From Okamejei kenojei (lineage: Eukaryota): a stretch of 64,000 bases of DNA. Below, piece after piece: positions 1,195 to 60,673 of this stretch. Every line of letters begins with the position of its first letter. Positions within the stretch are counted from its first letter, which is position 1. The notes below the pieces were generated by a model. That model was not told the DNA's origin. It did no database searches and was given only the letters and a program-made list of their open reading frames with translations. Where the stretch lies: the NCBI GenBank assembly GCA_035221665.1, contig CM069135.1:76694001-76758000 (forward strand). The letters are read 5' to 3'. The position numbers were made by a program, and so were the translations under genes.

Positions 1195-1700
1195 ACATGT
1201 TATAGGAGTAGAATTAAACATTCGGCCCATTGAGTCTACTCTGCCATTCAATCATGTCTGATCTCTGCCTCCTAATCCATTTTTCCTGCCTTCTCCCCAT
1301 AACCCTTGACACCCGTTCTAATCAAGAATTTGTCTATCTGTGCCTTAAAAATATCCACTGACTTGGCCTCCATAGCCGTAAGTGGCAATGAGTTTCACAG
1401 ATGAACTGCCCTCTGACTAAAGAAGTTCCTTCTCACCTCCTTTCTAAAGGAGCGCCCTTTAATTCTGAAGCTATGACCTCTGGTCCTAGACTCTCCCACC
1501 AGTGAAAACATCTTTCCCACATCCTTTCATAATTCTGTAAGGTCCCCCCCTCAACCTTCTAAACTACAGCGAGAAGATGCCCAGTGCTGTCAAACGCTCA
1601 TCATATGCTAACCCAATCATTCCTGTAAACTTCCTCTCGACCCTCTCCAGAGGCAACACATCCTTCCTCAGATATGGGGCCCAAATTTGTTCACAGTAAC
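1195..1700 (-). mobile_element. CR1 LINE 3' fragment
   Basis: Reverse complement of the CR1 RT C-terminus/3'UTR seen at 15100-15670 (ggccattcggccc, ccttctccccataaccc, tggtcctagactctccc). Confidence 0.8.
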
Positions 1701-1789
1701 TTAATGAAGGGTGTGTAAAACTGTGGTGCAAAATTTTTGCTAGTAGATTTTGTTTTCATATATAATTGGGGAGGATGAAGCTAGATGGT

Positions 1790-2095
1790 GGGGGAGTCCA
1801 AACCAAGGGCCACAGTTTAAGAATATGGGGTAGGCCATTTAGGACTGAGATGAAGGAAACACTTCACCCAGAGTTGTGAATCTGTAGCATTCTTTGCCAC
1901 AGAAGGCAGTGGAGGTCAATTCACTGGATATTTTCATGAGAGAGTTAGATTTAGCCCTTAGGACTAAAGGGATTGGGGGAACAAGCAGGAACGTGGTACT
2001 GATTTTAGATGACCAGCCATGATATTATTGAATGGTGGTGTTGGCTCGAATGGCTGAATGGCCTACTCCTGCACCTATTTTTCTATGTATCTATG
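1790..2095 (+). mobile_element. CR1 LINE 3' end
   Basis: ggggagtccaaaccaagggccacagtttaagaat...ggcctactcctgcacctattttctatg matches the 3' end of the 12160-15675 CR1. Confidence 0.85.
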
Positions 2096-2819
2096 TTTAG
2101 ATAATGTAATAACTCACTTACCTCATATAATGCAGGCAGAACATGGTAGAGTATAGGAACAGGATCTTCGGCTTGGTATCCTTGCCAAGCATGATGCCAG
2201 GCTAAACTAAACGCTTCTACCTGTACATGTCCATATAACTCCATTCCCTGCATATCCATGTTCCTGTCTTAATGCCTCTTAAATGCCCCTATCATATCTG
2301 TCTCCAGTAGCATCACAACAGCACATTCCAGGCATCCAACATTAGAAAATACTTGCCCTGGACATCACCTTTTTTAAATGTCTTCCCTCTCACCTTAAAG
2401 CTGTGGAGTCTGTCATTTCCGCCCTGGGAAAATTATATATACACCTCTCAAAATGTTATATGCTACTATTAGGTCTCCCCTCAGCCTCTGACATTCCAGA
2501 GAAAAAGGCTGTCACATCTATTCTTTAATGTATATCTCACTATTGTATCATCTACTCTAATTAGCAGACAAAAAAGAAAGAGAAAATTGCATCGTTGTCA
2601 TAGTTTGAACATTGAGTATACATTTCAAACCACTTTAAGCAAAGTAATTTCTTCCTGTCGTGCCCTTATGAAGGTTACAGACCTGTCGCTTTTCATATCA
2701 TAAGATCCTACTTCAGAGAATTGATGTAACAAATAATTAATTGCCTCTCAGTGGAGATGTATTGGGCAGCTCAGCAAACTTCTCCTGTGGGTGCTGCAGA
2801 GAATATTTTATCCATCAAA

Positions 2820-3360
2820 AGGCAACAGGGAGCCCAACATCTATGGTGAGTGAGTTACTGGGGAGGATTCTGAGGAATAAGATATACATGTGCTTGGATA
2901 GACAGGAGCTGATTAGGGACCCTAGATGTTATTTATATGGACTTGTGCATGGTAGGCTGCTCTGGAAGGCTAGTTTGCATGGGATCCAGGGACAGCTGGC
3001 TAATAGGATACAAAACTGGCTTTCTGGAAGAAAGAAAAGAGTGGTGGTGGAAGGGTGTTTTCAGATTGGAAGCCTGTGACTGGTGGCATGCCTCAGGCTT
3101 TGGCACTGGGCTCATTGCTGTTTGTGATTTATATCAATAATTTCAATAAGGTTGTACAAAGCAAGATGAGTAAGCTTGAAGATGGCACAAGTGGTGGTAT
3201 CATAGATAGTGACGATGATTATCAAAAATTACAGCAGGCTCGATCAGCTGGGTAAATGGTCTGAGGGATGGAATTTAATGCAGTTAAGTGTGCAACTTGC
3301 ATTTTGCAAATTTAAACCAGGGCAGGACCTTCACAGTGAATGGTAGGTTGGTCAGAATGG
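2820..3360 (+). mobile_element. Degenerate CR1 reverse transcriptase fragment
   Basis: Broken ORFs read HGIQGQLANRIQNWLSGRKKRVVVEG / FSDWKPVTGGMPQ..LGSLLFVIYIN. Confidence 0.8.
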
Positions 3361-4565
3361 TCTCTGATTGAGAACCCAGCATGTGTGTGTTGCTCCTTGC
3401 ACAATGACATGTATTGTGTTTGGGGTTATTGCACGGTTGCTGGGTTTCTGCATGAGGAGGGAATCCGCTGAAGGGTTTGCCAGTAATTTGGGTTTGGAGA
3501 TTATCAGACTGAGTCCTGGTTCTGCCCATAAACAGCAGCCAAACATGTATTTTGCCAAAAGAACATCCACCATAACATTGTATTCAAGAGAGAGTTGGAT
3601 ATAGCTCTTGGGGCTAATGGAATCAAAGGATTTGGGGAAAAAGCTGGCTCGAAGGGCCGAATGGCCTTTTCCTGCACTTATTTTCTATGTTTCTATTGGA
3701 TGCAGAAGTCATGGATGAAGTTGTCCTACTTAACCTGGGGTTCTGAGATTTATTGTTATATCCATTCCAAAGCCAGCTAACAAAGATCAGCCTGTCAGAG
3801 GTGGAAAGAAAGATGTTTCTATCATATGAATAAATCTCCTGACTTAGTCAGTTCATCTGCTATGTTCTATCATCCACAATAAGAACTGATTTTGGTGCTA
3901 GCGGAGAATTTGGGCTCAATGTTATTAAAGGAAGCAGCTGTTTCATTCTCAGCCAGTTCTTTAAAGATTTGTTTACACTGAAGAAACGGTACATAAGGTC
4001 ATCCGCAAACTTGAGCAATAGTTTCATTTGAAGGAAAGGAGCAGCTGAAGATCATATTTTGCAGTCTCCACATTGGCACTAAGAGGCACTGGGTGTAATT
4101 CTATATTGTGAAATGATGAGGTAGGCACAACTAGGTCATCTGATCAGATTCTGCCTGTGTTATTTACTGGCTGTGAATCATTTAGTAAATGTACTTTGGT
4201 GTCATCAATCCAACATATGATGATACTAGTGTGAAAACTGGAGCAAAACATGGCCTAAAATGCCAAACGCAACATTTGTCCATGTCATATAGTACAAGTT
4301 CAGGGTAATCGTTCTTGCTGCCTTCCTTTATCTTATTGTTTCAAAGGAAATTAGTTTCAAACCATCTTTTATGTATATTAAGGATTACTACTGCATGTAA
4401 GATTTGAAATGTGGATACCTTTTGGATGCTGCACATTTTGTGAAATATACTCAAATATATAGTGTAGATCATAACACATAATAAACAGTAAGGCATTGGT
4501 GAAATTAGATAGTAATTTTATTGAGTAATAAAATAATGGCTTTTTTAAGCTAGTCTTCTGAATGT

Positions 4566-4955: not shown

Positions 4956-7200
4956 GTTCTTGGTTACTTGGTCCTCCAAAATATTCCAACTGGAATTTAA
5001 ACTGGAGGTGGTGAAGGGAGGGGTTAAGCCAGAGAGGGTTATTGGGAAGAAAGTGCCACTTTAAATTTAGTTGCATCTGGCTGGGCAACCGTGGTTTGGT
5101 GGAGACTATTCCATGCTTTAATAGTGCGTGGGAAGAACAAATTGCTGTACACATCTGTCTTTGTGGCTGGGACCACAAATTGGATCGAATGCCCTTGTCT
5201 GCTCCTAATTGGTTTGGGGTTGGTGTAGGTCTTGTGATCTATGTCTAGCTGACCATTTAACATTTTGCAAAAACAGGTCAAACGGTGAACTTCACGTCTG
5301 TCTTGGAGAGGGTTCCACCCCAGAGAATTCAGAAGTTTGGTGACACTCGCTTCTCTCTCGTAGGTGTTAGTAACAAATCGAGCGGCCTGTCTTTGGACAC
5401 GCTCGATGGATGAAATGTTTTTATCTGTGTATGGGTCCCACGCTGCAACTGCGTAGTCCAGATGAGGTCTAACGAGGGTGAAATACAGCTTCTCCTTGAC
5501 AGAAGCTGAACAACGATGGAAGTTGCGCCTCAGGAAGTTTAGGACACCTGTTGCTTTCGCTGTTGCATGATGAGTCTGACCATTCCAACGTAGATCATTC
5601 TGTAATTTGATGCCAAGATACTTGGTTTGTTTGGATTCTTCAAGGGTGACACCAAGTATGTTGTAAGATGTGACGCCTGGATTCCTCTTTCTGGTGACAC
5701 GCATGGTTTCACATTTGGAAGGGTTGAACTGCATGCCCCATTGTTGTGACCACTCGACCATAGTATCGAGATCCTTTTGGAGAGCATCTTCATCATCAGC
5801 TGACTTAATTGGACGGTACAGCAAACAATCATCAGCGAATAGTCTGGTCGTACTTGCGACTTTTTCATGGATGTCATTGATGTAAAGCAAAAATAGGTGT
5901 GGGCCAAGTACTGTGCCCTGGGGTGTACCACTCAACACTGGGTGCCAATTGGAGCTCTTTCCGTTCACACACACACGCTGAAGACGTTTTGTCAGGAAAC
6001 TGGAAATCCAACGTTTCGTGTTGGAACGAATACCGTAGAAGTCAAGCTTCCGAAGCAGTCTCTGGTGTGGGATGACATCAAATGCTTTAGAAAAGTCCAG
6101 TACAACTAAGTCCATGATGACGTTACTGTCAAGGTGCTTGGCCAGGTCATTTGTTGTCAGGATAAGCTGAGACGCGCATGATCTCTGCCTCCTAAATGCA
6201 TGTTGGTTGTCGGCAAGAATATTATGTTTGCTCATGTGTGGCATCAGATTACTATCAATGTTATGCTCCAGCAATTTACAGCAAGTATTTGTCGGTGAAA
6301 CAGGACGATAATTCGCTGGGTTGGTGGTTGAACCCTTCTTAAAGAGAGGAGTGATGTTGGCCTTCCTCCAATCCAGCGGTACATCGCCCGAGTCAAGCGA
6401 TTGTTGAAAAATGAACTGTAAAACTGGAGCCAGTTCTTCGGCTGCGATCTTGAGGGCTTGATTTTGTATCTGATCTGGTCCAATTGCTTTTGTGGTATTA
6501 ATGTTGAGCATTAACTTCTTGACACCTTCAACCTCAATTTTAATAGCAGGCATATGGGCTGGGCGGAAGGACTGGAAATGATGAAGGCTCCACATCTTCC
6601 CGGGTGAAAACATGTTGGAATTGGTTCGCAAGAGCTTCTGCTTTCGCCTGGTCCTCAGTGACCAGGCAGTTGTTCACTTTTAGCATCTGGACACCAGTGT
6701 TGTCTGTCCGTCTGGATTTCACATATCTCCAAAAATCCTTGGGTTGTTCTCCCCCAAGAATAGAGGAAACATGTTGTCTATGAGCACTCCTAATTGCATG
6801 ATCGACTTGCTTTCGCACACTAGTAAAATCGTCCCAGTCCAATTTTGTACCCCCTTTTTTGGCACGGATATAAAACTTCTCTTTCTTACTGCAGAGACGT
6901 TTCAGTTTCGCCGAAAACCAAGGAGGACGCATACGGCCCTTGATTAGTTTTTGCGGAACATGATTTGTGACAATATTATTTAAAGAGTTTTTCAGCCACA
7001 CCCAGTTGTCTTCTACGGATCTACTATCTGGTTGCAGGTTGAAGAAATCTTTTGCCAGTTTTTTAGCTAAGCCTTTAAATTCCTCGCTGTTCACTTTTTT
7101 CCAGAGGGAAATTTTTTGCGGTGGTTTTGAAGGGACTTTAAGCTTTAAGTGCAATTTTGTTTGGATAATATAATGATCACTAATTCCTGCACACGATGAA
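4956..7200 (-). mobile_element. 5'-truncated non-LTR retrotransposon (CR1/L2 supergroup, lineage distinct from the resident CR1s); ORF2 with a single frameshift near 6550
   Basis: ORFs 6540-7232 (ISDH, end of APE endonuclease) and 5039-6631 (NYRPVS, LDFSKAFD, GTPQGTVLGP, RLFADD, WGMQFNPSKC, FFPRTIKAWNSL); short 3'UTR ending in an ACCAAG(A) repeat tail. Confidence 0.9.
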
Positions 7201-7319
7201 ACACAGGAATAAATTAGTGAAAACTGAAACATTTTGTGTGTGACTCTCTCTGACTCTCTCCTGTCTAAATCTATGTTGACAAATTTGGACTCTTTGAAGG
7301 ATTTTTATCAGAATATATC

Positions 7320-11070: not shown

Positions 11071-11598
11071 ACAGTTATACAAGTTGTTGCATTTGTTGCT
11101 GTCCAGGTTAACTTGACCTTGAGGAAAGGATTGTGCAAACCTGTTGATCTAAGGAGTTTAGTTTAGTTGAGAGACAGAGCACAGAAACAGGCTCTTTGGC
11201 CCATTGAGTCCATGTCGACCAGTGATCCCTGCACATTAACACTATCGTACACACCTTAGGGACAATTTATAATTTAACCAAGCCAATCAGCCTACAAACC
11301 TGTATGTCTGTGGAGTGTGGGTGGAAACTGGAGATCCTGGAGAAAACCCACGCAGATCATGTGAGAACATAAAAACTCTGTACAGACAAGCGCCCATAGC
11401 AGAGCTGCCAACTCTCACGCATTGAGCGTGAGACTCACGCATTGAACGTGAGACGCATTTCGCCCAATTCTCATGCTCTCATGCTGATCACAGAATTTCT
11501 CACGCTCTGCCGTGAGAAATTCTGTGATCAATGAGAATTTCAAAACTAATATCAACTGTATGGGCCGTGGGTGTTGGAGAGCCGGGGTGGAGGGAGGG

Positions 11599-11831
11599 AT
11601 GGAAGCAGAAGCAGCGGCAGGGGCAGATAAGGACGAGGAGCCGGGGCTGGCGAGTGTTTGCTGGGCTGGCAAGTAGCTCGCTGCAGCTCCGGCCATGGAG
11701 CAGCCTCAGTGCAAGAGTCGGAGACGTCAGAAGCGTTGCGCCGCTGCTGTGAGAGTCTCTGTGCCGAATTCACCCTGATGGATCAGGCTGTGGCTCGCTG
11801 CATCCTGGAGGACAACCAGTGGCTGCTGGAC
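11599..11831 (+). pseudogene. TDP2: Captured fragment resembling TDP2 coding exon 1 (N-terminal UBA-like domain)
   Basis: Frame of ORF 11658 reads LRRCCESLCAEFTLM---DQAVARCILEDNQWLLD versus recalled human TDP2 VKKRRLLCVEFASVASCDAAVAQCFLAENDWEME; followed by ctaggt, a GTAGGT donor with g>c. Confidence 0.65.
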
Positions 11832-11939
11832 CTAGGTACCAAGCACTGGGTAGAAGTGGTGGAAGATAGTGGCTGTCAAATGGGGGTGGTTGGAGAAAGC
11901 ATCCTGCTTGCCTGCTAGATTTTCACTTACTGTAACTGC

Positions 11940-14900
11940 AGGAAAAATGTTCCCGATGTTGGGGGAGTTCAGACCAGGGGTCACAGTTTAAGAATAAGAG
12001 GTAGGCCATTTAGGACTGAGATGCGGACAAACTTTCATCACCCAGAGAGTTGTTAATCTGTGGAATTCTCTGCCACAGAAGGCAGTGGAGGCCAATTCAC
12101 TGGATGTTTTTAAGAGAGAGTTACATTTAGCTCTTGGAGCTTGCGAAATCAAGGGATTGACCTTAACTGGAGTGGGACTGACATTCTTGCAGGCAGGTTT
12201 GCTAGGGCTACACGTGTGGGTTTAAACTAAATAGTGGGGGGAGGGATTGACAAATTGGGAGTATAATGATGGAGTTGAAGGGGAAGTGAGTACAGGAAAA
12301 ATCACAAAAGAGTCTCGAATTAATAGTAAGGAAAGTTCAAGAAGGGATAAAAGTGTAAGGTCAGGGCCAATTGTGAGCCGTGCGAGGGGGGATGTGAATA
12401 CGGAGGTCAAAGTGTTGTATATGAATGCGCAAAGTATAAGAAATAAAGTGGACGAGCTTGAGGCTCAGTTACAAATTGGCAAGTATGATGTTGTGGGAAT
12501 TACAGAGACATGGCTGCAAAAGGGCCAGGGCTGGGAACTGAAAATTCAAGGGTATACCTCCTATCGAAAAGACAGACAGGTGGGCAGAGGGGGTGGCGTT
12601 GTTCTGTTGGTGAGGAATGAAATTCAGTCCCTTGCAAGGGGTGACATTGAAACAGGAGATGTGGAGTCAGTATGGATCGAACTAAGGAATTGTAAGGGTA
12701 AAAAAACCCTAATGGGACTTATCTACAGACCCCCAAACAGTAGCCTGGACATAGGGTACAAGTTGAATCAGGAATTAAAATTGGCATGTAGCAAAGGTAA
12801 TGCTGTGGTTGTTATGGGAGATTTCAACATGCAGGTAGACTGGGAAAATCAGGTTGGTACTGGACCCCATGAAAGGGACTTTGTAAAGTGCCTTTGTGAT
12901 GGATTCTTAAAGCAGCTTGTATTGGAGCCTACCAGGGAGAAGGCAATTCTGGATTTAGTGTTATGTAATGAACCAGATTTGATAAAGGACCTCGAGGTTA
13001 ATGAGCCATTAGGAAGTAGAGACTATAACATGGTCAGGTTTAACCTACAATTGGAGAGGGAGAAGGGTAGATCGGAGGTGTCAATGTTACAGTTGAATAA
13101 AGGGGACTATGGGGCCATGAGGAAGGAGCTGGCCAAAGTTGACTGGAACGATACACTAGCAGGGATGACAGTGGAACAAAAATGGCAGGTATTTCTAGGA
13201 ATAATACAGGAAGTGCAGGATCAGTTCATTCCTAGGATGAAGAAATATTCCAAGGGGAGTAAGGGGTGACCTTGGCTGACAAGGGACGTCAGGAACAGTA
13301 TAAAAATAAAAGAGAAGTACAACATAGCAAAAATGAGCGGGAAGCAAGAGGATTGGGTAATGTCTAAAGAGCAACAGAAGATAACCATATAACCATATAA
13401 CAATTACAGCACGGAAACAGGCCCTCTCGGCCCTTCCAGTCCGTGCCGACCATGGAAGGGCCGAGAGGGCCTGTTTCCGTGCTGTAATTGACTAAAATTG
13501 ACTAAATAACTAAAAAGACAATACGGAGAGAAAAGATGAGGTACAAAGATAAGCTAGCCAAGAATATAAAGCAGGATAGTAAAAGCTTCTTTAGGTATGT
13601 GAAGAAAAAAAATCAGTTAAGACCAAAGTTAGATCCTTGAAGACCGAAAAAGGTGAATTTATTATGGGGAACAAGGAAATGGCAGATGAGTTGAACAGGT
13701 ACTCTGGATCCGTCTTCACAAAGGAGGACACAAACAATTTTCCTGATATAGTAGTGGCCAGAGGATCTGGGGTAACGGAGGAACTGAAGGAAATCCACAT
13801 TTGGCAGGAAATGGTGGCAGATTTGTATTTTACAGGAAGGGTTTAGAGGGCCTTTGGTCAAATGCAGGCAAAAGGGACTAGCCCAATACACCAACTTAGT
13901 TGGCAAGGACAAGATGGGCCAGAGAGCCCATATCCCAGTTGTACAGCTCTATGCCTTGATGACTCTAAATATGGTTCTTGTCATGTTTCTTCCTGATATA
14001 GTAGTGGCCAGAGGATCTGGGGTGACGGAGGAACTGAAGGAAATCCACATTAGGCAGGAAATTATGTTGGGTATACTGATGGGACTGAAGGCTAATAAAT
14101 CCCCAGGGCCTGATGGTCTGCATTCCAGGGTACTTAAGGAAATGGCTCTCGAAATCGTGGATGCATTGGTGATGGTTTTCCAATGTTCGATAAACTCAGG
14201 ATCAGTTCCTGTGGATTGTAGGGTAGCTAATGTTATCCCACTTTTTAAGAAAGGCGGGAGAGAGAAAACAGGGAATTATGGACCTGTTAGCCTGACATCG
14301 GCAGTGGGGAAGATGCTGGAGTCAATTATAAAAGATGAAATAGCCACACATTTGGATAGCAGTAACAGGATCGGTCCGAGTCAGCATGGATTTACGAAGG
14401 GGAAATCATGCTTGACTAATCTTCTGGAATTTTTTGAAGATGTGACTAAGAAAATGGACAAGGGTGAGCCAGTGGATGTAGTGTACCTGGACTTTCAGAA
14501 AGCATTTGATACGGTCCCACATAGGAGATTAGTGGGCAGAATTATGGCGCATGGTATTGGGGGTGGAGTGCTGACATGGATAAAAAATTGGTTGGCAGAC
14601 AGGAAACAGAGAGTGGGGATTAACTGGTCCCTTTCAGAATGGCAGCCAGTGACTGGTGGGGTCCGCAAGGCTCGGTGCTGGTACTGCAGCTATTTACAAT
14701 ATACATCAATGATTTGGATGAAGGGATTCAAAGTAACATTAGCAAATTTGCAAATGACACAAAGCTGGGTGGCAACTGTGTGAACTGTGAGGAGGATGCT
14801 ATGTGAATGCAGGGTGGTTTGGACAGGTTGGCGGAGTGGGCGGATGCATGGCAGATGACGTTTAATGTGGAGAAATGTGAGGTTATCCACTTTGGTAGTA

Positions 14901-15788
14901 AAAACAGGAAGGCCGATTCCTATCTAAATGGCGTCAAGTTGGGAAAAGGGGAAGTACAGCAGGATCTGGGGGTCCTTGTTCATCAGTCTATGAAAGTAAG
15001 CATGAAGGTACAGCAGGCTGTGAAGAAAGCAAATGGCATGTTATAACAAGAGGAATCGAGTATTGGAGCAAAGAGGTCCTTCTGCAGTTGTACAGAGCCC
15101 TAGTGAGACCACACCTGGAGGATTGTGTGCAATTTTGGTCCCCTAATTTGAGGAAGAACATTCTTGCTATTGAGGGAGTGCAGCATAGGTTTACAAGGCT
15201 AATTCCCGGGATGGAGGGACTGTCATATGCTGAGAGAATGAAGCAGCTGGGCTTGTACACTCTGGAGTTTAGAAGGATGAGAGGTGATCTTTTTGAAACA
15301 TATAAGATTGTTAAGGGTTTGGACACGCTGGAGGCAGGATACATGTTCCCAATGTTGGGGGAGTCCAGAACCAGGGGCCACAGTTTAAGAATAAGGAGTA
15401 AGCCATTTAGAACAGAGATGAGGAAACACTATTTCTCACAGAGAGTAGTGAGTGTGTGGAATTCTCTGCCTCAGAGGGCGGTGGAGGCAGGTTCTCTGGA
15501 TGCTTTCAAGAGAGAGCTGGATAGGGCTCTTAAAGATAGTGGAGTCAGGGGATATGGGGAAAAGGCAGGAACAGGGTACTGATTGGGGATGATCAGCCAT
15601 GATCACATTGAATGGCGGTGCTGGATCGAAGGGCCGAATGGACTACTCCTACACCTATTGTCTATTGTCTATTGATATGGGAAAAAAAACTGGAAAGGTA
15701 CTGATTTTAGATGAACAGCCATGATCATATTGAATGGCTCGAAGGGCAGAATGGCCTATTCTTGCACCTATTTTGTATGTTTCTATGC
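11940..15788 (+). mobile_element. Older CR1 3' fragment (11940-12157 plus 15675-15788) split by a younger CR1
   Basis: ...gaaatcaagggat | gatatgggaaaaaa...cacctattttgtatgtttctatg rejoin as a CR1 3'UTR. Confidence 0.75.
12160..15675 (+). mobile_element. CR1 LINE, near-complete ORF2 (APE endonuclease + RT) with stops and frameshifts
   Basis: VLYMNAQSIRNK, GITETW, GDFN, ILDLVL (EN); SPGPDG, QHGF, YLDFQKAFD, LVRPHLE, WNSLP (RT); (ctattgt)n tail. Confidence 0.95.
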
Positions 15789-15857
15789 CTGAGTATATGG
15801 CAATAAAACTCGACCACTTGATTGTGAAGCATTCATGCAGGGTGGAGGTATAATGTA

Positions 15858-16092
15858 GTCATAGAGTGATACACTGTGAAAACAGGCCCTTTAGCCCAAC
15901 TTGCCCTCACCCGCCAACATGTCCCAGCTACACTACCTGCTTTTGGTCCATATCCCTCCAAACCTGCTTTTGGTCCATATCCATGTATATGTCTAACTGT
16001 TTCTTAATTGTTGGGATAGTCCCTGCCTCAACAACCTCCTCTCGCAGCTTGTTCCATACACCCACCACCCTTTGAGTGGAAAATGTTACCCC
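15858..16092 (-). mobile_element. CR1 (HER1-like) 3' end with a 27-nt tandem duplication
   Basis: gtcatagagtgatacactgtgaaaacaggccc...; acctgcttttggtccatatcc occurs twice. Confidence 0.75.
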
Positions 16093-19000
16093 TTAAAAAG
16101 TTATGTCTTAAACATACTTCAAACAAAAAACATTGAAATCATACTTCTACAATGGACTAAAACATGATTTTAATACAAAAAGTCCCTATCCCCACTCGGT
16201 CGATCCACTCCCTCACCAGGTACCCCAAGGCCAGTGATCAGTGATCACTCAGCCCCCCCCCCCCCCCCCCACTTTCCAAAATGCCCCGTGGCCCCTGGTT
16301 CAGATGGAGAGCACTGCCAGATGTGAGCGGGGAACTGAGGCCAGTTGACCGTGATGTCTGGATCCCAATGATCAGCCCTTCATGTTTCGGAGTTGGCTAA
16401 TGTTATTGATTTGTAATTAGCCTGATTTGTAATTAGTTGACAAAACCTTAATTTATGAATCCGGAATATCCAGGGGGATGGGATAAGTGTAATATTAAAA
16501 TGACATGCAAGCTGTCAGGCTGTCTGTCACAACATACAGCCCCGATAACCCATTATTTCCTTCAGTTAAATATTGGGAAGGTAGCACTATTGTCATTTGC
16601 CACTCAACTATTAGGTTTGATTACCTCACTGACTACATCAACCCCCCCCCAAATTCCTTTGACTGGTTGAATAGAAATATCCCCAATCTCGTTTTCTTAT
16701 TAACTGAACACATAGATGAACATCCTCAAGGCATGTAATCAGATGGAAACTGATTCAGATGCAATGTTTAAGAGCTTGTTCAAAGAAGGGGCATATTTTA
16801 AAGGAGTGACAGAAATACTTGCAGGGGAATGTGTGATGAGGTTATTATTTGTCTTTAGTTTTAGCTTGAACCAGGACATCTGAAGATTCAAAGTTGAATA
16901 TAGTAATTGTGCTGATACTGACTCGAACCAACCATGTAATGAATATCATCCATTCCGGAGGTTTTATATTTCTCATGCCTTTAAACTTCACTTGGATTTC
17001 AATCACTTCAATGTAAAAGTAATTGGTAATGGGGAGCATTGGAACAAAAAATTGCCCTTGGTACATATTAACTGTAATATAATAATGTCTGCATGTTGGT
17101 AGGTACAATCAAAACAAATATCTTTTTTATCATTGTTGTGTTATGAATACCACAGAAAATATTATGTACTCTCAAGATCACATTAAATAGAATATTATTG
17201 CTTAAATATATAGTTATTGGACTTTGCATTTCAGAAAAGTCCCAGCTGAGAGGAAGACAGCAAAACACTGAAAACATTGGGGGTGAAAATTATTTCAGGA
17301 CAATTTGTTAGGAAAATTAAGGAAATGGTAATAGAATACTTATACAGCTGAGTGAGTATAATTTTATGGATGAGAAATTGTGTTCCACCAATTGATGACT
17401 TATTTGACAAAGTAAATAGCATGTTAGATAACAAGGAGGCTAACGAATGGAGCAAATTTTGTTATTTGGTCCGTGAAGTGCCCCATAAAATATTACCACA
17501 TTAGGTAAGCACCTGTGGACTTGAACATAATAGGTTAAGTTCAGGAGGTCAGATGTGGGGCTTTATGTGTGGGCCAGATATATTGTCAGTGCAGAAGGGC
17601 TAGGAGCAAGGCCAAGTGTGCATCCAGAGTCAAGGTCTGGAATAGTATTAGTTGTGCAGCCAAAGCTGGGACAATGGGAGTGTTCAGCACCGGAAACCTA
17701 AGCAGGTAGCTATGATCAGGGCATAATAGGGGGCCAGGTGTAAGGCTGGACTCAGGGTCAGGAATGAGTGAAGGTATGCAACTGGAGTCAGAGTCAGCAA
17801 TAGTACCCGGTGTGCAGTGAGACCCAGGTTGGTCAACATGTACCAAGTACTTGATTATAATCTGATTTCCATACATGAATACACTAAGATCATTCATGTG
17901 CTGCACCTGTTTATCTGAGCCTGGCTCTACTGTGGAATGTAATTAGGAATGTAATTTAGCCTAACCTTATTCATAGCTAATCCAATTTAAAGCATAAATA
18001 TTGCATTCAAGTGTAAGTTAAAAGACTCACTACAGTATGCACCAGATTGCACAATTTCAAGCTGAAAAATGCAACAGCAACATACCAAGCTCCGACATCC
18101 CCTTCCCACGCCCCCCCCCCCCCCCCCCACAATCACTAGACTCCCTCGGGCTTGGTCTCTCGCAATTTCGCACTGCCAACTCTCACCCAAATTTGGCAAC
18201 TTGCCGTAGCCAGGATCAAACCTGGGTCTCTGCCGCAGTAAAGTAGCATCTCTACCACTGCGCCACCGTGCCAAACATGGAGTTCCCTGAATTCTGGTGG
18301 CAGCCCAGCTACCTCTGAGCCTGGCTCTCTGGCTCTGCCATCTCGAGTGGTTGAATACGAGAGATAATGTTTTATATCTCAGAAACTGGTATTGCTAGTC
18401 TGCCGTTTTACCAGTTAATTTTCCAGTTGCGTTTCATTTCTCTAATGACTTAGGTTAAACATTTCCCTTTGGTCTTTATCTTATTCAAGCAATTAGCCTA
18501 ATTACAGGCCTTCAATCCCAGCAATAGGGATTTAAACTGGCAGCAAAAAAACTAAAATAAAATGCTATCTAGTATTCTCTTGCCCCAAGCTTGCTTTGGT
18601 AATGGTTATTGACAGATAATATAATCCAAGAGTACTATTGGCAAAATTGAATGAAATTGACAGATGATGAATAATAATGTGAAAAACATGATATGTTAGG
18701 TAAATTAGGTTATTTTTGAAATGTCCAAATTAGATTGTTACATGCATATTTAAAAAAAAACTGCAATTTTCAAAAGCCAATACTCTGAAATTGGAATTAT
18801 GATGCTATATTTCTTTACGGAAAATCGTTCAGTTCTGGAGCAGAGAAAATAAAGCATTCATCTGAGTAATTCGTATAAACTGGAGCCATATGGCAAACCA
18901 TAATAGTTCTGAGGGAGCTCGGTAATGTATGCTCTTTCCACTGAAGCTCAGGGTGATATCAACTGACTGAAGAGAAATTAACATGATGTGCTATGGAGCA

Positions 19001-20465: not shown

Positions 20466-20725
20466 GGGGGTGGCGCAGTGGTAGAGTTGCTGCTTTACAA
20501 CGCTCGATCCTGTCTGTACGGAGTTTGTACATTCTCCCTGTGACCGAGTCAGTTTTCTCCGGAAGCTCCGGTTTTCTCCCACGGTCATACAGGTTTGGAA
20601 ATTTATTCGCTTTGGAAAAAATTGTAATTGGTCCCTGGTGTGTAGGATACTGTTAGTATACGAGGGTGACGACTTGGTGGGTTGAAGGGTCTGCTTCCGC
20701 ACTGTATCTCTAAACTAAACTAAAC
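20466..20725 (+). mobile_element. tRNA-derived SINE
   Basis: ggtggcgcagtggtagagttgctg...ggagtttgtacattctccc...(taaac)n tail. Confidence 0.8.
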
Positions 20726-21502
20726 TACCGCCACTACTGACTGTGGGTAAACTTTTCCCTTGCGTTTACCCACAGTCAGTGGTGGCGGTAGTTTAGACTT
20801 TATGCCTTTGAGCTTCCAGGTCAGATTTCAGTGGCACAAATGTGTTCTTCACTGTTTTATTTTAGATAAGACCTATTCCAATGTGATTGTGTGAACAATA
20901 GTAGATAATATATAGCCATATGTCATAATGTTCCAATCGCTAAGCTTACAACCCAATGATATGAATTCTCCAACTTCAAATAATCCCAACAATCCCTCTT
21001 TCTTTCAAAATAGTGTAACATTAGATAGTCACCCATTATATAAAACCAATTTGGTAGTGTAAACAGAACAAAACTGGATATATTTGGCTCATTCTCTCTT
21101 AGCTTTCTTTGCTACTTTGATAAAGAAGCTTGTTAAACCTGGGGAAAATTTAAAAAAAGTTCCTTTTACCTATGAAGTTAGAAAGCTCCTGTCAACTAGA
21201 AAGACAGAGTTGATCCTGACGCACTCCTCATCTGCTGCCTGCATTTTCTGGGAGGGGATAATGAATAGCAGCTGACACCAAGGTGCCTTGGCTGTTTTTA
21301 TCCACAACCTACACAGGACATTGAAACTGATTAGTGTTATTATCAGCATCTTGGATTAACTTGGTTAAATCACAGACTAAGGATTATACATCACATGATC
21401 AGGAATGCTATTTGGCAAAATAGGTCTGATGCAGAGATCTCAAAATGAAGCTAATTTGGATATTGATCAATTGTTGCAGATACTGAAAGTCTCCTATAAA
21501 TG

Positions 21503-37979: not shown

Positions 37980-39957
37980 CAGTGCCAGATTTACCTATAG
38001 ACTTGTTAGGCTGAAGCCTAGGGCCTCAGAATCTAGGGGGTCTCTGGCCAAGGTGTATAATATTTTTGACACTGTCATAGGCATTTCTTACAAACGCTGT
38101 CACAACGCACTGTTCTCTCTAAACAACCATAATTTTCCTTTTCCTTTGAAATGCCATCCATTTCAGAAGAATACTGTTTTAAGCTGATAACTCGACACTA
38201 GCACTGGCAATAAATACATTTATAAAAAGCGAAGCTTTCCAGCCCCTTATCTCATTGGTCATGCTCAGCTGCACATCGGTGTCAATCTGGTGGCACCGGG
38301 GTCCGGCATACTTTCACACGTGCTCCTGTAAGCAGCGATGGTCGGTGCAGGGAACACCTTTGGATACTTGCAGGCTTCAAAAGACAAAACTCAGGGGTTA
38401 GTAGGAAAGTGCAAAGATATTTGAACTAAGAAGTTGGCAATGAGTAATGCTAGGGATAGAGCTAGAAACTTACTGTGTAGTGCTGTGGCTGCCACTGTCA
38501 GGTTAGTAATAAAACTAAGCTTATTTGTAGCATCTTTGTTAACGATAGGAAAAAGCATATTCGTTTTGTAAACGGTTTTTGGAAGCACATTTGGAAGAAC
38601 TGGAATTTGTGTTTATGCTGTATTTTTGGACCTGTGTGCTAGGTCATTTCCACAAGGTCAACAAAGCCATTCAGAAATCAAAACTGTTATTGAGTACTTG
38701 TGCAAGTTTGTACAGTTCACTTCAGGATTTTTTTAAGCAATGTTAGAGAAGATTTTTGATGAGCTTGAGCAACAAGCAAAGGCCACCTTGCCAAATGTTA
38801 ACTACGGAAGTGTCACAGGGAGACAAAAAGTAAGGAAACGGCAAGGAAATGATGGATGTGCACCAGGTCCTGATGTTTTAGATAAACTCTCTTCAGGAGA
38901 TAAGTTTAGGATAAAATCCTTTATTCCTATACTAGATGCACTTGAAACCAATTTAAGAAGAAGAGCTACTGTGTACAGTGATGTTGCACAAATGTTTTCA
39001 TTTCTTGCTAATCTGACCGTATCTAAGCAAGAAATTCAGCAAGGTGTTAACCTGTTGATGGAAGCATATCCAGAAGATGTTGACCTGAAACTTACGGATA
39101 AACATTTGCACTTTCACTTGTATGTGAGACAAAGCCATAGGCCTACAGAAGAGCACTCTCTGTCTCATACAGACCTTTATCAAATTATATACAAGGACAA
39201 AATTCAGATGGCCTTCCCCAATGTGGAAGCAATCTTGCTGCTGTTTCTTATCTTAATGGTCACTAACTGCTCGGGAGATAGGTATTCTACAAGACTCAAA
39301 AGAATTAAAAATGAATTAAGGGCCACAATGTCTCAAGACAGGTTGTCAGCACTGAGCATTCTGTGCATTGAGAGTGACAAACTTAGACAAACACATTTTG
39401 ATGAACTTCTGGATGATTTTGCAATGAGGAAGGCTAGAAACTTTTTTTGTCTCAAAGTATTTGATGATTGTAGTTTATTTATTTCTTAACATGTCAATAT
39501 ACAGTAGGATCTAAAAGTGTCACACTGTCACTGTCAGGTAGTCATGGTCTTCTTATTATCACTTCCCAGGCAATAACCTTTTAAGCTCACATTTTTGATT
39601 GTTTTTTTTATTTTTATTTTTTAATATAAAAGTAAACCTACAATTTTATTTTCCTAAAAATTCCTGCTTATTCCACAAAATGTTTACAAAGTTCAGTTAT
39701 AGCAAAAGTTTTTCACAGTGTTCATTTTAACATTCATGCATTTTTTTTTCAATCACTACAGTATTTAACAATAACATTTTATGTCCTTTAGACAAGGAAT
39801 TGCGAATTGCGGAATTTTAAACACCCGTCATCATCCTTGGCTTTACTCAAATTATTTAAAACACTCTTCCATCTTCCTCTAGTCGTGGGGGTGGGGATTG
39901 GGAGGGGCCTCACAAGTGGAATAGCCTAGGGCCTCTCTTCATCTAAATCCGGCATTG
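37980..39957 (+). mobile_element. hAT DNA transposon, internally deleted
   Basis: Perfect 8-bp TSD tttgcagg (37972-37979 and 39958-39965); imperfect TIRs cagtgccagattta / taaatccggcattg. Confidence 0.92.
38740..39489 (+). pseudogene. hAT transposase C-terminal remnant (hATC dimerisation domain)
   Basis: AFPNVEAILLLFLILMVTNCSGDRYSTRLKRIKNELRATMSQDRLSALSILCIE matches the hAT FP...T..S.ER.FS.LK.IK..LRS.M...RL..L motif, with the catalytic ER-FS decayed. Confidence 0.85.
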
Positions 39958-59049: not shown

Positions 59050-60673
59050 CAGTGGCTTGCAAAAGTATTCATACCCCTTGAACTTTTCCACATTTTGTCA
59101 CGTTACAACCACAAACGTAAATGTATTTTATTGGGATTTTATGTGATAGACCAACACATAGTGGTGCATAATTATGAAGTTGAAGGAAAATGATACATGG
59201 TTTCCAAATTTTATTACAAATAAAAAACTGAAAAGTGTGGCATGCAAAAGTATTCAGCCCCCTTTACTCTGATACCCCTAAATAAAATCCAGTGTTACCA
59301 ATTGCCTTCAGAAGTCACCTAACTAGTAAATAGAGTCCACTTGTGTGTAATCTAATCTCAGTATAAATACAGCTGTTCTGTGAAGGCCTCAGAGGTTTGT
59401 TAGAGAACATTAGTGAACAAACAATGTTCCTTCGGCATCATGAAGCACAAGGAACACACCAGACAGGTCAGGGATAAAGTTGTGGAGAAGTTTAAAGCAG
59501 GTTAGGTTATAAAAAAATCCCAAGCTTTAAACATCTCACGGAGCACTGTTCAATCCATCATCTGAAAATGGAAAGAGTATGGCACAACTGCAAACCTACC
59601 AAGACATGGCTGTCCACCTAAACTGGCAGGCTGGGCAAGGAGAGCATAGATCAGAGAAGCAGCCAAGAGGCCCATGGTAACACTGGAGGAGCTGCAGAGA
59701 TCCACAGCTCTGGTGGGAGAACCTGTCCACAGGACAACTTTTAGTTGTGCATTCCACAAATCGGGCCTTTATGGAAGAGTGGCAAGAAGAAAGCTATTGT
59801 TGAAACAAAGCCATAAGAAGTGCCGTTTGCAGTTTGCCACAAGCCATGTGGGGGACACAGCAAACATGTGGAGGAAGGTGCTCTGGTCTGATGAGCCCAA
59901 AATTGAAGTTTTTGGGCTAAATGCAAAACGCTATTTGTGGCGGAAAACTAACACTGCACATCACCCTGAACACTCCATCCTCACTGTGAAACATGGTGGT
60001 GGCAGCATCATGCTGTGGGGATGCTTTTCTTCAGCAGGGACAGGGACGCTGGTCAGAGTTGATGGGAAGATGGATGGAGCCAAATACAGGGCAATCGTGG
60101 AAGAAAACCTGTTAGAGTCTGCAAAAGACTTGAGACTGGGCGGAGGTTCACCTTCCAGCAGGACAACGGCCCTAAACATACAGCCAGAGCTACAATGGAA
60201 TGGTTTAGATCAAAGCATATTCATGTGTTAGAATGGCCCAGTCAAAGTCCAGACCTAAATCCAATTGAGAATCTCTGGCAAGACTTGAAAATTGCTGTTC
60301 ACAGATGCTCTCCATCCAATCTGACTGAGCTTGAGCTATTTTGCAAAGACGAATGGGCGAAAATTTCAGTCTCTAGATGTGCAAAGCTGGTAGAGACAGA
60401 CCCCAAAAGACTTGCAGCTGTAATTGCAGCGGAAGGTGGTTCTTCAAAATATTGACTCAGGGGGGCTGAATACTTTTGCACGCCGCACTTTTCAGTTTTT
60501 TATTTGTAATAAAATTTGGAAACCATGTATCATTTTCCTTCCACTTCACAATTACGCACCACTTTGTGTTGGTCTATCACATAAAATCCCAATAAAATAC
60601 ATTTACGTTTGTGGTTGTAACGTGACGAAATGTGGAAAAGTTCAAGGGGTATGAATACTTTTGCAAGCCACTG
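59050..60673 (+). mobile_element. Full-length Tc1 (IR/DR-type) DNA transposon
   Basis: TA TSD on both sides; ~210-nt TIRs starting cagtggcttgcaaaagtattcatacccc; internal direct repeat gcaaaagtattca. Confidence 0.97.
59440..60455 (+). pseudogene. Tc1 DD34E transposase, frameshifted
   Basis: MKHKEHTRQVRDKVVEKF, VLWSDE, TVKHGGGSIMLWGCF, QQDN-x34-E (WPSQSPDLNPIE); several frameshifts and stops. Confidence 0.93.

Follow-up and report, generated by a model that had tools for sequence, protein, structure and literature searches.

In plants, Pack-MULEs and Pack-TYPE elements are non-autonomous and carry intron-retaining, GC-rich 5′ gene fragments between inverted ends, and MULEs are characterized by long inverted ends and target duplications of 9-11 bp. 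In animals, Tan et al. 2021 (PMC8277862) reported 370 Pack-TIR cases in 100 genomes, of which four, in frog and alligator, are multicopy; two of the multicopy cases are described there with three and five copies, and the word 'shark' is absent from the main text of that paper. As its method starts from consensus elements, a family in which the cargo is already part of the consensus would probably have been missed. Among vertebrates, bat Helitrons are the precedent in which 5′ gene parts reached thousands of copies, by a different mechanism; Thomas et al. 2014 (PMC4224331) counted 12,382 copies, derived from 54 genes and 16 other regions, the 5′ parts being the most numerous. In addition, REP-21_CPB of turtles has been presented as a hybrid non-autonomous DNA transposon with thousands of copies and foreign sequence inside (Frith, bioRxiv 10.1101/2021.11.26.470093).

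The locus considered here lies in a stretch of 64,000 nucleotides from the skate Okamejei kenojei (GCA_035221665.1, contig CM069135.1, forward strand, positions 76,694,001 to 76,758,000), hereafter the window. A first-pass annotation, made from the letters alone, had pointed to a first exon of the gene for tyrosyl-DNA phosphodiesterase 2 (TDP2) inside a DNA transposon. The element is very probably a non-autonomous TIR transposon that carries about 930 bases of host TDP2 as a passenger, captured once from genomic DNA and now present at an estimated 2,000 sites. This reading is directly supported by the termini, the target duplications, the parent locus, the retention of an intron, the dispersed copies and neutral decay. 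In the papers searched, among them passages of two skate genome papers (PMC10115646, PMC12361510), no description of a TDP2-carrying family was found.

Layout of the window copy

The stretch 11400-18203, which had been delimited as the element, is one copy of a non-autonomous TIR element of about 3.3 kb that splits a SINE and is itself interrupted by a CR1 of 3.5 kb (Table 1). The delimitation holds for the window but not for the family: the CR1 is absent in 19 of 19 other copies compared, in which position 12157 is joined straight to about 15674 or the similarity stops before, and because the insertion is private to the window copy among these, the family unit is about 3.3 kb and not 6.8 kb. 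A perfect 20-nt hairpin is found in the left arm of the carrier, at 11485-11530.

Table 1. Features of the TDP2-carrying element and its borders in the window
Feature	Position	Strand	Remarks
Left target-site duplication CCATAG, within SINE	11394..11399		Equals 18204-18209 except for one CpG-type change
Left terminal inverted repeat CAGAGCTGCCAAC (family: CAG(A/G)GCTGCCAAC)	11400..11412	+	Flanks of copies differ; similarity begins here
Carrier left arm	11400..11572	+	First 80-90 nt common to cargo-free sister elements
Captured TDP2 5′ leader; left breakpoint approximate	11573..11598	+	Corresponds to native L034 from 3211 onward
Captured TDP2 exon 1, coding part, broken in window copy	11599..11831	+	Stop codon (11674-11676) and deletions of 10 nt (near 11719) and 9 nt (after 11777)
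Decayed splice donor CTAGGT	11832..11837	+	GT-type in most copies
Captured TDP2 intron 1: unique part, then CR1 3′ fragment	11838..12157	+	CR1 fragment at equal place in native intron
Later CR1-type LINE insertion	12158..15673	+	Private to window copy among copies compared
Remaining captured intron 1 (CR1 tail end, SINE-like piece)	15674..16093	+	Right breakpoint about 16093, beside near-duplicated 14-nt word
Non-coding carrier body	16094..18191	+	Last ~340 nt common to cargo-free sister elements
Right terminal inverted repeat, decayed (family end GTTGGCAGCCCTG)	18192..18203	-	Compared with other copies
Right target-site duplication CCGTAG; SINE resumes after	18204..18209		Pairs with CCATAG

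In the exon block, the ATG, the LRRCCESL...WLLD block and the CTAGGT that follows it are all present as first described, and the loss of three codons corresponds to a real 9-nt deletion. The leader, which had been read in another frame, is indeed separated in the window copy, in which a private 10-nt deletion splits the frame and a private stop is also present; in unbroken copies, by contrast, one reading frame of 81-84 codons extends from the ATG to a phase-0 donor. Derivation of the 'CC' pair from two arginines by CpG decay applies to the second C, whose codon is TGT in the window and CGT in 35 of 50 copies, but not to the first, where 45 of 50 copies and the native gene alike have TGC. In CTAGGT a splice donor has decayed, for which GTAGGT had been proposed as the original; among 50 copies of the family, 24 have GTAAGT and 17 have GTAGGT. 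Taken alone, the window peptide gives weak matches, with E=0.046 for the TDP2 UBA in PDB and E=0.037 for Pfam UBA_4, the latter below cut-off.

Directly 3′ of the cargo, the segment 16094-16280 resembles the element's own right subterminal motif and ends like the terminus of another DNA transposon, and the carrier may be composite. Elsewhere in the window, two near-perfect inverted repeats, one of 38 nt at 13401-13490 (inside the CR1 insert) and one of 33 nt at 20720-20796, have spacers of 11-14 nt, and open reading frames, named by resemblance, recall a hAT transposase C-terminus (38737-39489), a Tc1 transposase (59650-60231) and a LINE reverse transcriptase (5039-7304). A second full-length copy (L092, G000:C5:76,762,881-76,766,529) is situated about 5 kb past the window end on the opposite strand.

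Termini and affiliation of the carrier

The family has 13-nt inverted ends, and an automatic rule applied to 49 loci located both ends in 16 distinct copies. Of these, 13 are flanked by a target duplication in which one position at most is mismatched (6 bp in five, 7 bp in seven, 8 bp in one) and three show none, and such duplications appear in 0-1.8% of wrongly paired control flanks; two further loci, L051 and L056, have exact 6-bp duplications that were seen by eye and are additional to the automatic count. Sister elements have a different interior and no cargo; what they have in common with the family is 80-90 nt at the left and about 340 nt at the right, at 75-86%.

Transposons of the hAT superfamily typically generate 8-bp target duplications, shorter in some subgroups, and those of the P superfamily have CANRG ends and duplications of 7-8 bp. 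The hAT-typical length is seen in one of the 16 copies, with 6 or 7 bp in 12 of 16; the family ends fit CANRG, and duplications measure 7-8 bp in 8 of 13 copies and 6 bp in 5 of 13. Moreover, hAT families with 7-bp duplications are mentioned in a Repbase paper (PMC4455052). Judged by these rules for ends and duplication length, a hAT-like carrier is mildly favored, a P-like one is possible at a clearly lower probability, and a carrier of some other superfamily is fairly unlikely.

No autonomous hAT with the family ends was present in 80 hAT-domain stretches sampled (PF05699, 30 of 150 plus 20 more; PF14291, 30 of 95), most with only 1.5 kb of flank, and no P transposase enclosed by family ends in 30 P-type loci. 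A family end does occur in 13 of these 30 loci, but within short nested elements that lie upstream of the transposase and have a constant flank, and it was rejected as the transposase's own terminus. In this P/THAP9-like transposase family (39 matches; L131-L157), 12 of 30 loci have a GA-rich short element with a family-type end at one fixed site upstream of the domain. Mobilization of the skate family would have occurred in trans, by a hAT- or P-type transposase made elsewhere.

In the carrier interior, nothing recognizable is encoded: three frames have no convincing Pfam match (APG6, E=0.004, half the cut-off), the Atlas search gave no match, and no Rfam match was obtained in L093. When the interior was compared in translation with transposase loci (two of four copies, first part of the output), only the shared right end matched. 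A transposase remnant or a second captured exon was rejected as the nature of the interior, since neither a convincing Pfam match nor an Atlas match was obtained.

Native TDP2 as the source of the cargo

The parental locus, as anticipated by the first-pass annotation, is the native TDP2 gene at G000:C2:145,913,232-145,941,822, with seven exon matches, whose exon 1 (L034:3232-3501) ends at the codon equal to that of the cargo. According to the first-pass annotation, exon 1 of human TDP2 ends at the equivalent residue, E55. The proposed TDP2/UBA origin is significant when read through L019, an unbroken natural copy, which among longer proteins has only two matches, both skate TDP2 (Rhinoraja, 77%, and Leucoraja, 81%; E 2e-25 and 1e-16), and an unbroken copy also matches the human TDP2 UBA structure (E=7e-4).

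The cargo aligns in order to L034:3211-4142, a span of about 930 bases that takes in some 20 nt of leader, exon 1 and the first 640 nt or so of intron 1. Similarity had been expected to continue beyond the exon on both sides, and it does so into intron 1 but not into the 5′ flank, where it stops about 20 nt before the ATG. Two repeats nested in intron 1, a CR1 tail and a SINE-like piece, occupy corresponding positions in the element and in the gene. When compared with the commonest letter at each position of 42 copies, which themselves differ by 4-5%, the native intron is 83% alike in its unique part, 88% in the CR1 tail and 92% in the SINE-like piece, with 57% past the right junction, and the element arms have no match around the native TDP2 locus. 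Because intron 1 is retained with its two nested repeats, the source was unspliced rather than a spliced or processed mRNA, and the earlier view of a captured genomic exon instead of a processed retrocopy is sustained. A processed pseudogene was accordingly rejected: in aligned copies exon 1 is followed by donor and intron, with no exon-exon junction or A-tail.

At the right junction, a 14-nt word is near-duplicated in the element (shown in four copies) and single in the gene, which suggests that capture proceeded by template switching or gap repair. The duplicated word would fit template switching, and a later tandem duplication could also yield it. The left breakpoint and the microhomology are tentative, since no exact cargo-free progenitor was found among the loci examined, 30 left-end loci included.

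The native exon 1 donor is GCAGGT and not GT (L034:3499-3510, L034:9990-L035:15; G000:C2:145,913,50x and 145,920,00x), so that either a GC-AG intron would be used or donor and acceptor would both be shifted by 4 nt with the frame kept. A stretch of 80 kb at G000:C2:145.69-145.77 Mb (L041-L048) resembles the TDP2 region at 91-98%; the expected place of exons 2-6 is taken by a gap of 500 N with many indels next to it, and the stretch may be either a false assembly duplication or a recent segmental duplication. As the source of the cargo this duplicate was rejected, being more distant than the native gene. A broken second TDP2 last exon, at G000:C2:145,967,605-145,967,883 and 145,757,057-145,757,335, resembles the Amblyraja TDP2-like protein P0015 and appears to be the remnant of a skate TDP2 paralogue.

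Copy number and dispersal

A DNA search of the skate's own genome with 11540-11930 gave 3001 candidates; of the 40 that were scored, one is the window itself and the other 39 cover nearly all of the query at 85-89%. A search with the middle segment gave 2058 candidates and one with the left end 2309, which is of the same scale, and an exact 31-nt pattern spanning exon end and donor had 640 matches, with none for the control. For calibration, 58 loci were picked by the middle or the left end, the region being present in 35 and the exact pattern in 10 of these 35, with samples that differ (1 of 14 and 9 of 21). Calibrated on these 35 copies, the family is estimated at about 2,200 copies (95% range 1,400-4,400).

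Dispersed copies with the same termini, which had been predicted, are many, and they lie on many contigs between unrelated flanks with different target duplications of their own. In three public runs, two presumed to be DNA and the third of unproven type, many diverged versions of the element were detected along all 30 bins, so the family is not an assembly artefact. In 29 of 30 loci picked by the left end, the sequence goes on into the TDP2 leader or exon, and in the remaining one a deletion leads directly to the intron cargo; since all 30 carry cargo, the loaded form is the form that multiplied. Tandem partial copies (L192, L197; G000:C2:145,890,022-145,890,374 and 145,896,102-145,896,396), made of a left end with part of the exon, a GA-rich tract and another left end, possibly represent a sub-family. 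In repeat libraries, a TDP2-carrying family could mask the true TDP2 exon 1 or yield false skate gene models.

History and decay of the cargo

Similarity is 90% among the copies and 77% between them and the native exon region (50 copies). The copies group in a single star-like clade, separate from the gene (100/100, in a bootstrap not fully settled), the star being 4-5% deep. As all copies belong to one clade and share both breakpoints, we infer that one capture took place, likely of the TDP2 leader, exon 1 and the start of intron 1 from genomic DNA, after which the cargo likely spread as a passenger. In protein comparison, the N-terminus of the cargo is of the skate type and a segment present in other rays and sharks is missing, which would place the capture after the origin of skates. 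If rates were equal, capture in a skate ancestor would be about 1.4-2.4 times as old as the burst. One copy lies 23.5 kb upstream of TDP2 on the other strand and, at 73-87% to the native cargo, is like the other copies; it was rejected as the founder because it is no closer to the native cargo and its duplicate falls inside the star.

The native exon differs from the copies by 30 weak-to-strong and 9 strong-to-weak differences (p=0.001), against 11 and 4 in the intron, and has a GC content of 78.5% compared with 67.5% in the copies; the methionine that starts the Leucoraja protein is replaced in it. The copies and other skates thus keep the skate-type N-terminus, from which the native exon has moved away by an AT-to-GC shift, with GC-biased gene conversion at a CpG island as the simplest presumed cause.

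Changes in the captured exon are neutral. The pN/pS over 50 copies is 0.92 outside CpG (223 and 84 changes) and 0.99 at CpG, a measure that could miss a few selected copies among thousands. CpG sites change at 12% versus 3% elsewhere, four times faster, as would be expected for methylated copies. An open frame from ATG to donor is found in 18 of 50 full-exon copies, 17 of them with a GT donor and the window copy not included, and in 9 of 24 copies picked by other parts. A search for fused proteins in public sets yielded nothing beyond skate TDP2, one TDP2-like protein and three translations that read through element copies.

The significance once attached to a repair gene as cargo is not upheld, in view of this neutral decay and of what was left behind. 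The TDP2 catalytic part has matches only at the native region, and the cargo stops before UBA helix 3, which by alignment lies in exon 2 and bears an aromatic residue important for ubiquitin binding (PMC5137425). With no catalytic exon and no UBA helix 3, a repair role of the cargo is unlikely, and the identity of the captured gene is probably incidental.

Alternative explanations

The start of the cargo about 20 nt before the ATG, with no promoter sequence included, is close to a possible transcription start, and an RNA template would give likewise. A copy of unspliced TDP2 pre-mRNA, made by RNA-templated repair or reverse transcription and then moved by DNA transposition, could draw on the CR1 reverse-transcriptase remnants in which the region is rich, but is very improbable, as the cargo ends inside the SINE-like piece of intron 1, with no A-tail and no exon 2, and no duplication of its own is visible at its junctions. 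Horizontal transfer of the loaded element from another skate lineage would explain the likeness of the exon to the TDP2 of other skates, the N-terminal half being nearer to the Leucoraja, Rhinoraja and Amblyraja proteins (73-85% by alignment) than to the native exon (63% identity). The differences, however, are strongly directional in the native gene and explained by a GC shift in the host lineage, and both nested repeats are common to host intron and cargo, which makes such a transfer very improbable. That the native-looking locus was derived from the element, or that the copies are segmental duplications or assembly artefacts, can practically be dismissed, even with a copy 23.5 kb upstream of the gene and a duplicated region nearby in the assembly. 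Homology of the native exon extends to the TDP2 of rays, sharks, human and worm, the nearby copy resembles the gene no more closely than the rest do, and the diverged versions along the whole element in public runs, together with unrelated flanks and separate target duplications on many contigs, refute it.

Rather than being a passenger, the CpG-rich first exon might have helped the family, as a promoter, by escape from silencing or by splicing into host transcripts. The open frames of full-exon and otherwise picked copies, the cargo in 30 of 30 left-end loci, and the higher copy numbers reached by bat Helitrons with 5′ gene parts (PMC4224331) would agree with such help, which nevertheless seems unlikely: a decay of 4-5% over 250 nt would be expected to leave open frames, pN/pS is about 1, the fast decay of CpG sites indicates that the copies are not protected islands, cargo-free sister elements also multiplied, and helix 3 with its key aromatic residue was not captured. 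It is decidedly unlikely that, among the several hundred copies that would still have ATG, open frame and GT donor, some now serve as new first exons, or that small RNAs of the element target TDP2 and the AT-to-GC divergence of the native exon represents escape from cross-silencing.

Comparison with known systems

Under a single genomic capture followed by passenger spread, the copies are a dated record of the ancestral TDP2 exon. They also offer a natural experiment on the rate at which transcripts take up a first exon that comes complete with ATG and donor, on a possible effect of cargo-derived small RNAs on the parent gene, and on the later evolution of that parent.

By the features examined, namely inverted ends, differing target duplications, an external parent and a kept intron, the family is a Pack-TIR. 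Compared with plant Pack-MULEs, its ends are short, its duplications are 6-7 bp and its host is a vertebrate, while the style of capture is alike. With the animal Pack-TIRs described by Tan et al. (PMC8277862) it shares a TIR element, an internal host fragment and an identifiable parent, as well as the position of multicopy cases far from the parent, distinct target duplications and a preference for GC-rich cargo; the difference lies in number, with three and five copies there and an estimated 2,200 in the skate family. Bat Helitrons (PMC4224331) are likewise vertebrate DNA elements that amplify captured promoters, first exons and first introns, but they are rolling-circle elements, whereas the skate carrier has inverted ends, 6-7-bp duplications and one gene fragment in all copies. 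The cargo of turtle REP-21_CPB is a CR1 fragment (bioRxiv 10.1101/2021.11.26.470093), in contrast to the host exon of the skate family. Gene capture at an estimated 2,000 copies is unusual for TIR transposons in vertebrates, and it means that such capture is not limited to relics of single or few copies, one event being able to give rise to thousands.
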